Assembly: GCA_001795615.1 (NCBI GenBank)
Contig: MGKI01000012.1
Location: forward strand, 1-50,590
DNA: 50,590 nt
From: Candidatus Yanofskybacteria bacterium RIFCSPLOWO2_01_FULL_42_49
GTDB lineage: Bacteria; Patescibacteriota; Minisyncoccia; 2-02-FULL-40-12; GWA2-44-9
Direction: 5' to 3'
Within the stretch, counting starts at the first letter, position 1; the number at the start of each line of letters is the position of its first letter. The notes beneath the pieces are model-generated. The model worked only from the letters and a program-made list of their open reading frames with translations. It searched no databases and was not told the DNA's origin. Below are positions 49,187 to 49,343 of this stretch, in pieces. Made by a program: the position numbers and the translations under genes.

Positions 49187-49229
49187 CACACCAAAAAGCT
49201 CTGGCAGAAAGCCAAAGCTTTTTGGTGTG
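49187..49229 (-). terminator. Hairpin/terminator downstream of the tRNA-like RNA
   Basis: cacaccaaaaagct...agctttttggtgtg 14-bp arms. Confidence 0.6.
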
Positions 49230-49299
49230 GACCCGGCGGGACTTGCACCCGCTTATCCGAGTGGTAACAACGGAATGTTACTATATACGTCACGGGCCC
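49228..49299 (-). ncRNA. tRNA-like RNA (non-canonical cloverleaf; G3-U70; nominal anticodon TAC)
   Basis: - strand GGGCCCG...GCGGG-TGCAAGT-CCCGC-CGGGTCC-A; D and anticodon stems carry mismatches; own promoter. Confidence 0.7.
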
Positions 49300-49314
49300 G
49301 GATCCACGGGAGTA

Positions 49315-49343
49315 ATTTTAGTATAGAAAAAGCCCTCTTTCAA
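49315..49343 (-). promoter_or_regulatory. sigma70 promoter for the tRNA-like RNA
   Basis: TTGAAA-17 bp-TAAAAT on the - strand. Confidence 0.65.

Follow-up and report, generated by a model that had tools for sequence, protein, structure and literature searches.

A predicted antisense RNA and a tRNA-Ala-like, apparently non-decoding RNA form a conserved two-gene module in Patescibacteria

The window analysed here is the whole stretch of 50 590 nt (positions 1 to 50 590) from contig MGKI01000012.1 of Candidatus Yanofskybacteria bacterium RIFCSPLOWO2_01_FULL_42_49 (assembly GCA_001795615.1). Upstream of a large serine recombinase gene, and on the same strand, it holds two short RNA genes in tandem that we call sRNA1 and RNA2 (Table 1). 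The original prediction, made from the letters alone, had described RNA2 as a tRNA-like RNA. The minus-strand letters that it quoted for 49343-49223 match the window exactly, and the promoter that it gave to this RNA, the hairpin 3′ of it, and the intact acceptor and T stems with G3-U70 and A73 are all there. Its claim of mismatched D and anticodon stems holds in the D stem, for a single C.A pair; the anticodon-like arm is a helix of 4-5 bp closed by a 9-nt loop. It overlooked the upstream antisense RNA, which co-evolves with RNA2, and a conserved leader that can take the place of the 5′ strand of the acceptor stem.

Both genes read as promoter-to-terminator units, from which two separate transcripts are predicted. 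The -35 element of P2, the RNA2 promoter, sits within the loop of the sRNA1 terminator hairpin, the stretch 49185-49307 folds with z = -7.3, and the ATG of the recombinase gene, at 49153, lies 66 nt beyond RNA2. This two-unit layout of promoters and terminators is common to all 23 aligned modules. A TTGAC-type -35 and a TATA(A/C)T -10 recur 5′ of homologous modules, and hairpins stand at the matching place 3′ of RNA2 homologues too.

Table 1. Features of the two RNA genes, of the recombinase element around them, and of the type-2 copies (window coordinates unless a locus is named)
Feature	Position	Strand	Description
P1, sRNA1 promoter	49406..49435	-	TTGACA-18-TATACT, TG ahead of -10; 11/12 matches
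sRNA1, partner antisense RNA, ~73 nt	49326..49399	-	ends predicted
sRNA1 segment A	49400-49386	-	complementary to RNA2
sRNA1 hairpin H	about 49388-49368	-	complementary to RNA2
sRNA1 segment B	49365-49356	-	complementary to RNA2
sRNA1 terminator-like hairpin	49348-49331, with T run to 49326	-	consensus scan, inverted repeats
P2, RNA2 promoter	49315..49343	-	TTGAAA-17-TAAAAT; 10/12 matches
RNA2 leader, 8 nt	49300..49307	-	GTGGATCC; alternative 9-bp helix with G49299
RNA2 body, tRNA-Ala-derived cloverleaf	49228..49299	-	7-bp acceptor stem, U8, D, anticodon-like and T arms, A73
RNA2 acceptor 5′ strand	49299-49293	-	GGGCCCG
RNA2 D arm	49290-49275	-	one C.A mismatch in window copy
RNA2 anticodon-like arm	49274-49256	-	4-5 bp, 9-nt loop
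RNA2 T arm	49252-49236	-	GCGGG/TGCAAGT/CCCGC
RNA2 acceptor 3′ strand	49235-49229	-	CGGGTCC; yields G3-U70
RNA2 A73	49228	-	then CACCA to 49223
RNA2 terminator-type hairpin	49187..49229	-	A run; 19-nt arms 49187-49205 and 49211-49229, 95%; T run
Large serine recombinase gene	47519..49153	-	Resolvase, Recombinase, Zn_ribbon_recom domains
tRNA-Gly	47552-47625	+	ARAGORN, Rfam
Inverted repeat, left arm	47621..47758	.	138 nt, 98%; outer end overlaps last 5 nt of tRNA-Gly
Inverted repeat, right arm	49469..49606	.	33 nt upstream of P1
Type-2 copy	L094 3176-3400	-	
Type-2 copy	L100 2330-2540	-	
Type-2 copies	L124, L128, L132		

RNA2 is, judged by its sequence, a derivative of tRNA-Ala. The organism's own tRNA-Ala(cgc) (contig C4:68263-68334) shares its acceptor stem letter for letter (GGGCCCG/CGGGTCC), as well as A73 and the C that follows. 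A G-U pair stands at 3-70 in 46 of 46 rows, and every homologue row long enough to show it has an A after the 3′ acceptor strand. The cloverleaf is conserved as a fold: 96.7% of cells are paired in a 16-row alignment, where 13 of 23 pairs have changed on both sides and the observed covariation was reached by none of 500 shuffles, and 97.6-97.8% are paired in an alignment of 50 rows. The D, anticodon and T stems carry the compensatory changes; RNAalifold on five sequences likewise returned a cloverleaf with such changes. The acceptor stem is paired in 100% of cells on 46 rows, and it is proven by covariation because a divergent class of the module (type 2, below) has two compensatory pairs in it relative to type 1, the class of the window copy. 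A strain variant in metagenome contigs has T for C at 49289, by which the C.A mismatch of the D stem becomes a pair. The copy in genome G135 (locus L086, 1511-1660) has no terminator of its own; a tRNA-Thr(cgt) begins 3 nt after RNA2 and a tRNA-Gly(ccc) lies upstream of the module, an arrangement which suggests that RNA2 may be matured by tRNA-processing enzymes.

Programs that look for tRNAs pass the window copy of RNA2 over. ARAGORN calls only a tRNA-Gln (15197) and the tRNA-Gly in the window, and the same two are the only Rfam matches there at gathering scores. The original prediction had expected a pseudo or low ARAGORN score; it was right that no normal tRNA is reported, but the window copy receives no call whatever. 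Rfam tRNA (RF00005) does not match the RNA2 locus even at E<=10, and in the E<=10 search of 47400-49800 there was no curated-model match to a T-box (RF00230), YrlA or other Rfam family, the top tRNA-like match being Tymo_tRNA-like at 14.8 bits against a cut-off of 40 bits. The 29-bit cut-off of Rfam tRNA is reached by none of 14 copies (the window and 13 homologues in loci L067-L079); eight ordinary tRNAs in those loci score 51-73 bits. All of 48 homologues have a pyrimidine (C or T) at position 37, the three copies inspected in their full ARAGORN drawings have C there and a C.C mismatch at 31-39, and the nominal anticodon is not constant among orthologues. With a pyrimidine at 37, an open 31-39 and a triplet that varies between orthologues, RNA2 should not decode. 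In this the original prediction of a non-decoding mimic with alanine marks and its own promoter and terminator agrees with what we find.

One of its arguments carries less weight. The T loop is indeed TGCAAGT, but that loop alone is no sign of non-function, since TGCAAGT or TGCAAAT also occurs in two of the 44 ordinary tRNAs of this genome. These are Tyr-gta (C10:4529-4612; TGCAAGT) and Thr-cgt (C1:34626-34701; TGCAAAT), each with G where U55 is expected.

RNA2 might still be a working tRNA, either an alanine-accepting mistranslator (here at UAC) or a decoder of the frameshift type whose loop is widened. The cloverleaf has canonical dimensions, with U8, a conserved T at loop position 33, G3-U70 and A73, all of which would suit such a role, as would the odd T loop shared with two ordinary tRNAs and the place of the G135 copy within a tRNA cluster. 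ARAGORN moreover draws the cloverleaf for 9 of 23 homologues, naming them Leu-tag, Ser-tga or Ala-tgc. We nevertheless think this improbable in view of the pyrimidine at 37, the unpaired 31-39 of the drawn copies, the failure of all 14 copies at the Rfam tRNA cut-off and the changing triplet, and also because a dedicated antisense RNA covers the anticodon. The genome's 44 tRNA genes include Ala tgc, ggc and cgc and Val tac and cac, so the alanine and valine sets are full and nothing is missing for RNA2 to supply. The ARAGORN names are a warning for annotation, in that some RNA2 copies will be entered as tRNA-Leu, tRNA-Ser or tRNA-Ala. The genome's transfer-messenger RNA (tmRNA) is a separate gene (C11:124188-124549, 107 bits); the body of RNA2 is only 72 nt.

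The predicted start of RNA2 is GTGGAYCY. These 8 nt and the first G of the acceptor stem can pair with the 3′ acceptor strand (49235-49227) in a helix of 9 bp, which RNAalifold picks over the 7-bp acceptor stem. The leader helix is paired in 100% of cells on 46-47 rows, with U.G/C-G and C-G/U-G/U-A variation, and at the single variable position of the 3′ strand an A is found only together with T at both possible partners (9/9). Its distal 7 bp are unchanged between type 1 and type 2. Conservation and one-sided changes thus support it. In the leader fold G3-U70 is not formed and the 5′ acceptor strand is single-stranded, and the leader may therefore be a lock, to be removed, presumably by RNase P, before alanine could be accepted.

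In each of 14 modules compared, the upstream RNA, sRNA1, has three stretches (A, H and B) that are complementary to RNA2. With RNA2 positions counted from the leader G, segment A faces 32-44, which takes in the anticodon stem's 5′ strand and the loop's first half; hairpin H faces 13-27, where the acceptor stem ends and U8 and the D arm follow; and segment B faces 41-53, made up of the loop's second half and the anticodon stem's 3′ strand. The pairing favours the cognate partner. Across 23 modules the duplex of sRNA1 with its cognate anticodon arm has a mean of -20.7 kcal/mol, against -11.9±3.3 for non-cognate pairs, and in no row does the cognate fall below rank 3 of 23, ties coming from relatives with identical arms. 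In 46 further modules the values are -21.9 and -14.4±3.4, with the cognate best in 23 and among the top three in 35. Where a genome has two copies, as three genomes do, the energies are -18 to -21 for cognate and -9 to -16 for crossed pairs. Nowhere do the two RNAs vary more than in these complementary stretches, yet the stretches change together, so that each pair appears to recognise only itself. Beyond its terminator, sRNA1 has no recognised conserved feature except complementarity to RNA2, which is why we read it as a dedicated antisense RNA.

The two genes lie close together on one strand and could pair equally well in cis. They might then be a single transcript from P1, riboswitch-like and self-locking, whose 5′ part folds on its tRNA-like 3′ part, with no RNA2 transcript of its own. 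The signals between the two parts leave this a slim chance. A GC hairpin and T run separate them in the 23 aligned modules, and the P2 -10 is TAnnnT in 23/23, with its end 6-8 nt 5′ of the first G in GTGGAYC in 22/23; TTG stands 17 nt 5′ of this -10 in 17/23. In G066, G090 and G214 an insertion lies ahead of a TATAAT -10, and in the first two of these a TTGATG is again found 17 nt 5′ of it. The downstream genes, moreover, vary or are convergent, so nothing is left for such a leader to control.

BLAST in 61 relatives gave the first look-alikes of RNA2, in G036, G020 and G038 (two in G038), none of them beside a recombinase gene. A covariance model, R1, was built from the five sequences of the first RNAalifold alignment. 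Among 105 genomes of the order, 12 contain matches to it of 87-109 bits, 14 in all, and the next scores are at most 45 bits; the distribution is bimodal, and the weaker matches inspected were ordinary tRNAs. Of 151 genomes sampled evenly across the class, 12 match at E<=1e-8, two of these being ordinary tRNA-Ala. An exact, degenerate 19-nt pattern occurs at 119 places in species-representative genomes; 80 of these were fetched and 48 are strong R1 matches, the remaining fetched places being chance matches in GC-rich genomes. Nearly all of the 48 are labelled Patescibacteria, apart from two Gammaproteobacteria and a few labelled only 'bacterium'. Two loci carry weak relatives of about 45 bits (L080 5027-5105, plus strand, and L078 8274-8354, minus strand) that have the GGGCCCG/CGGGTCC acceptor stem and the T arm, no GTGGAYC leader, and no upstream antisense partner that we could find.

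RNA2 could in principle be a decaying tRNA-Ala pseudogene or an attachment-site fragment left without function, for it is carried by a mobile element whose targets are tRNA genes, and the window copy has a mismatched D stem and escapes the tRNA finders. Random decay of the homologues, which would have spoken for this, is not what we see: covariation contradicts it, conservation extends through the class with compensatory changes in three stems, strong copies occur in 12 of the 105 order genomes, promoter and terminator are kept, and a partner co-varies. We regard a pseudogene as very improbable indeed.

The modules have no conserved neighbour gene that we found. Stand-alone copies sit among unrelated housekeeping genes (H+-PPase, recA/ftsK, prfA, RNase J, rpoC), and an IS200-like Y1 gene is near 3 of 14 loci, two of which are syntenic. 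A phage or plasmid origin was set aside, as the 19-nt pattern has no match in viral contigs and BLAST no match in phage and plasmid collections. A protein-coding reading of RNA2 was dropped because the frames differ between homologues. Identity as signal recognition particle (SRP) or 6S RNA was dropped once the tRNA-Ala identity was clear; the bacterial small and large SRP RNA models and the 6S RNA model have no match at E<=1 in any contig of the organism's genome (93% complete), and its tmRNA and RNase P RNA lie elsewhere. That RNase P RNA scores 91.8 bits, under the cut-off of 100 bits. The module belongs to no Rfam family, and full-text literature searches yielded no paper on it, only general or distant analogues.

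The divergent type-2 module is present in 9 of the 105 genomes, three of them relatives of the window organism from the same genus. Its leader is GTGGATCAA, its acceptor stem GGGCCGA/TCGGTCC with G3-U70, its variable loop is 12 nt long, and an antisense RNA of its own, encoded upstream, co-varies with this loop. It occurs in four cassettes of one genus at the place that the window module occupies in its own (G064:C38, G064:C6, G065:C127 and G061:C21); stand-alone copies occur too, one of them between dnaE and thrS. Counting both types, modules are found in 19 of the 105 genomes, with at most two, partly orthogonal, type-1 copies per genome. Patescibacteria have genomes of about 0.8 Mb with little room for extras, yet these 19 genomes keep one or two such units, made of two RNAs and no protein.

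We propose, with moderate confidence, that the locus is a conserved, self-contained two-gene module of Patescibacteria in which an antisense RNA controls a non-decoding mimic of tRNA-Ala, and whose function may be like that of a toxin-antitoxin pair. RNA2 would be transcribed from its own promoter with the 8-nt leader, which would pair with the 3′ acceptor strand and hide G3-U70. Pairing of sRNA1 with RNA2, whether in trans or, on read-through transcripts, in cis, would open the lower half of the cloverleaf and so either keep the mimic unfolded or mark it for degradation. It would thereby limit how much RNA2 matures into a mimic that is processed by RNase P, tailed with CCA and chargeable by alanyl-tRNA synthetase (AlaRS). 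RNA2 that stayed free would be trimmed, given its CCA tail and charged. In the window the two RNA genes ride as a passenger within the recombinase module of a serine-recombinase element that targets tRNA genes.

RNA2 resembles tRNA-Ala and the tRNA-like domain of tmRNA in its acceptor stem with G3-U70, its A73 and its T arm, and under the established identity rules it is expected to be a substrate of RNase P, the CCA enzyme and AlaRS. It differs from tRNA-Ala in the pyrimidine at 37, the open 31-39 and the variable triplet, from tmRNA in having no tag reading frame or pseudoknots, and from both in its conserved leader and dedicated antisense RNA. It would be a natural case of a tRNA gene turned into a non-decoding RNA that kept its synthetase identity, of two mutually exclusive helices that compete for one acceptor strand, and of an antisense partner that co-evolves with an anticodon arm. 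Should the mimic be charged, it would be a candidate for regulated delivery of alanine or for toxicity carried by RNA.

Antisense pairs such as hok/sok, RNA I/RNA II of pAD1 par and RNA I/RNA II of ColE1 are the nearest in organisation. As in type I toxin-antitoxin and plasmid antisense pairs, the antisense promoter is the stronger (11/12 matches in P1, 10/12 in P2), complementarity is divided over several separate segments, the segments that give specificity diverge but co-vary, distribution is patchy, and some copies ride on mobile elements; like hok mRNA, RNA2 may fold with a 5′-3′ lock. Unlike those systems, the two RNA genes stand in tandem on one strand and are neither overlapping nor convergent, there is no conserved open reading frame for a toxin peptide, and the controlled RNA is a tRNA mimic. 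A pair that recognises only itself behaves like an antisense toxin-antitoxin, addiction or immunity pair and not like a regulator of outside targets. Taken further, the module might be an all-RNA addiction or defence system in which the mimic, released by a short-lived, co-evolving antisense RNA, leader-trimmed and charged with alanine, poisons translation or the enzymes that handle tRNAs, and which spreads in Patescibacteria alone and as cargo of tRNA-targeting serine-recombinase elements. We offer this extension tentatively and consider it rather unlikely as it stands; if true, it would be the first toxin-antitoxin-like pair in which a tRNA mimic is the harmful partner and no protein is encoded.

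T-box leaders (RF00230) likewise pair with the anticodon region of a tRNA ahead of a terminator, as sRNA1 does. Unlike in T-boxes, the predicted pairing of sRNA1 spans some 35-40 nt in the D and anticodon arms in place of a codon-sized specifier, its tRNA-like partner is encoded next door, and no downstream gene is regulated. The Bacillus cereus pseudo-tRNA 'tRNA-Other' is a tRNA-shaped, non-translational RNA at a genomic island with a regulatory effect (PMC3399842). RNA2 shares with it the tRNA shape and the apparent lack of a role in translation; tRNA-Other belongs to another lineage with another sequence, and the available portion of that report mentions no antisense partner, alanine identity or conserved leader. 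In mascRNA of MALAT1, a eukaryotic long non-coding RNA, sequences flanking the tRNA-like module are reported to pair and to influence RNase P-type maturation (PMC8457004). The leader of RNA2 differs in that its partner is the 3′ acceptor strand itself, so that it would compete with the acceptor stem and not extend it.

A further alternative keeps the charged mimic and changes its use. RNA2 could be an alanine carrier for a non-ribosomal purpose, barred from the ribosome by its crippled anticodon loop, for instance for the FemX-type transferases that build peptidoglycan cross-bridges, and tRNA-Gly species that serve only the cell wall are known in staphylococci. Alanine identity marks joined to a non-decoding loop would fit, and genes of the FemAB family, cell-wall transferases that depend on aminoacyl-tRNA, are present in 100 of the 105 order genomes, that of the window included. 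Being nearly universal, FemAB is uninformative as a co-occurring family when modules are in 19 of 105 genomes, and no gene linkage points to it. A carrier would also leave the co-evolving antisense RNA, and two orthogonal copies in one genome, unexplained, and we give the idea little credence.

Several points weigh against the antisense-controlled mimic as we read it. Single-sequence folding of the window copy favours other inner hairpins over the D and anticodon arms; as the minimum free energy structure lacks those arms, the comparative fold was used instead. The C.A mismatch in its D stem could impair the window copy. Sequences of the acceptor and leader helices hardly vary, and support for both comes from one variable position. 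A search of sequencing runs turned up the stretch in DNA contigs and in no RNA run. The 19-nt retrieval pattern fixed the 5′ 19 nt, so that those columns are constrained, and counts across relatives are not independent of one another. No open reading frame is conserved across RNA2: frames differ between homologues, and the 41-aa frame of the window stops early in G036. Finally, a link of the module to the recombinase element is possible, given the six cassettes of the closest recombinase clade described below.

In the window, both RNA genes and the recombinase gene lie between the arms of the long inverted repeat, the right arm being just upstream of P1, and the final ~34 codons of the recombinase gene are read antisense through the tRNA-Gly. 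Another module-bearing contig, G064:C8, has the same layout. Recombinase matches at E<=1e-40 occur in 50 of the 105 order genomes; a tRNA gene, of many kinds, is convergent on the recombinase 3′ end in 24 of 29 loci, and inverted repeats of 60-147 nt and 88-100% identity frame the recombinase in 16 of 31 loci, 13 of them at >=97%. Such framing is seen at L094, L097, L098, L106, L107, L113, L114, L117-L120, L122 and L079, where one arm overlaps the last 3-8 nt of the tRNA gene and the recombinase 3′ end.

The original prediction tied the mimic to this recombinase as a decoy or guide, and a role in regulating integration or inversion might be added. In favour of it one may cite the convergence of recombinases on tRNA 3′ ends, the long repeats that frame them, and the recurrence of the module at one place, between the inner arm and the recombinase start, in six cassettes of the closest recombinase clade: the window and G064:C8 with type 1, and the four cassettes of one genus with type 2. 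The evidence as a whole does not support such a tie. Just two of about 50 distinct type-1 modules, those of the window and G064:C8, adjoin a recombinase gene; type 2 also stands alone; 5 of the 12 module-bearing order genomes have no recombinase match at E<=1e-40; and cassettes G058:C19, G039:C5 and G070:C17 carry no module. The other 29 recombinase loci hold no strong type-1 match to R1 (all are at most 35 bits), and two of them carry a type-2 module. In a crude duplex test on four cassettes, the variable arm and sRNA1 paired no better with the abutted tRNA than with those of others. A guide or bridge RNA was set aside on the lack of a preference for the cognate target tRNA and the absence of a nearby recombinase from most copies, and we judge a working partnership with the recombinase unlikely. 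We conclude that the window module is best regarded as cargo taken up by this clade of elements and not as a guide or decoy; a looser benefit to the element, such as stabilisation, is possible.

The window element may be compared with tycheposons (bioRxiv 10.1101/2020.12.28.424599): its recombinase abuts a tRNA 3′ end and has long inverted repeats on either side. An element of this type carries the window module, and most of the RNA modules lie outside such elements.

Some observations concern the elements themselves. One contig (depth 5) of metagenome run X5 joins 47754 to 49439 on the opposite strand, with 34 letters on its shorter side. This puts the left arm's inner edge next to sequence on the inner side of the right arm, with the orientation inverted; further X5 contigs have the junctions of the reference, and flipping of the segment is weakly hinted at. 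Summed contig depth in four metagenomes is 1,400-11,000 at 48736-48856, in the catalytic region of the recombinase, and at 49704-49824, in the spacer after an Ig-like protein gene, against 5-60 nearby, which points to stretches shared by many organisms or copies. Conserved, structured 5′ leaders precede recombinase genes at L009 1355-1470, L097 3000-3110 and L094 3010-3120 (all minus strand) and consist of nested stems, GGCCG...CGGCC, followed by TTTAAAGTTTT ahead of the ATG; the recombinase of the window has no such leader and starts 9 nt after its own TATAAT. At G064:C8 (L079 6728-6961, minus strand) the element abuts a tRNA gene with a group I intron (RF00028, 50 bits, equal to the gathering score), and the T loop in its 3′ exon reads TGCAAAT. 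Next to the first pair of long inverted repeats, L079 has another (2118-2329 and 4500-4711), as do L114, L117 and L118; the second pair of L079 frames a 695-aa open reading frame without a Pfam match and looks like a separately flippable cargo module.

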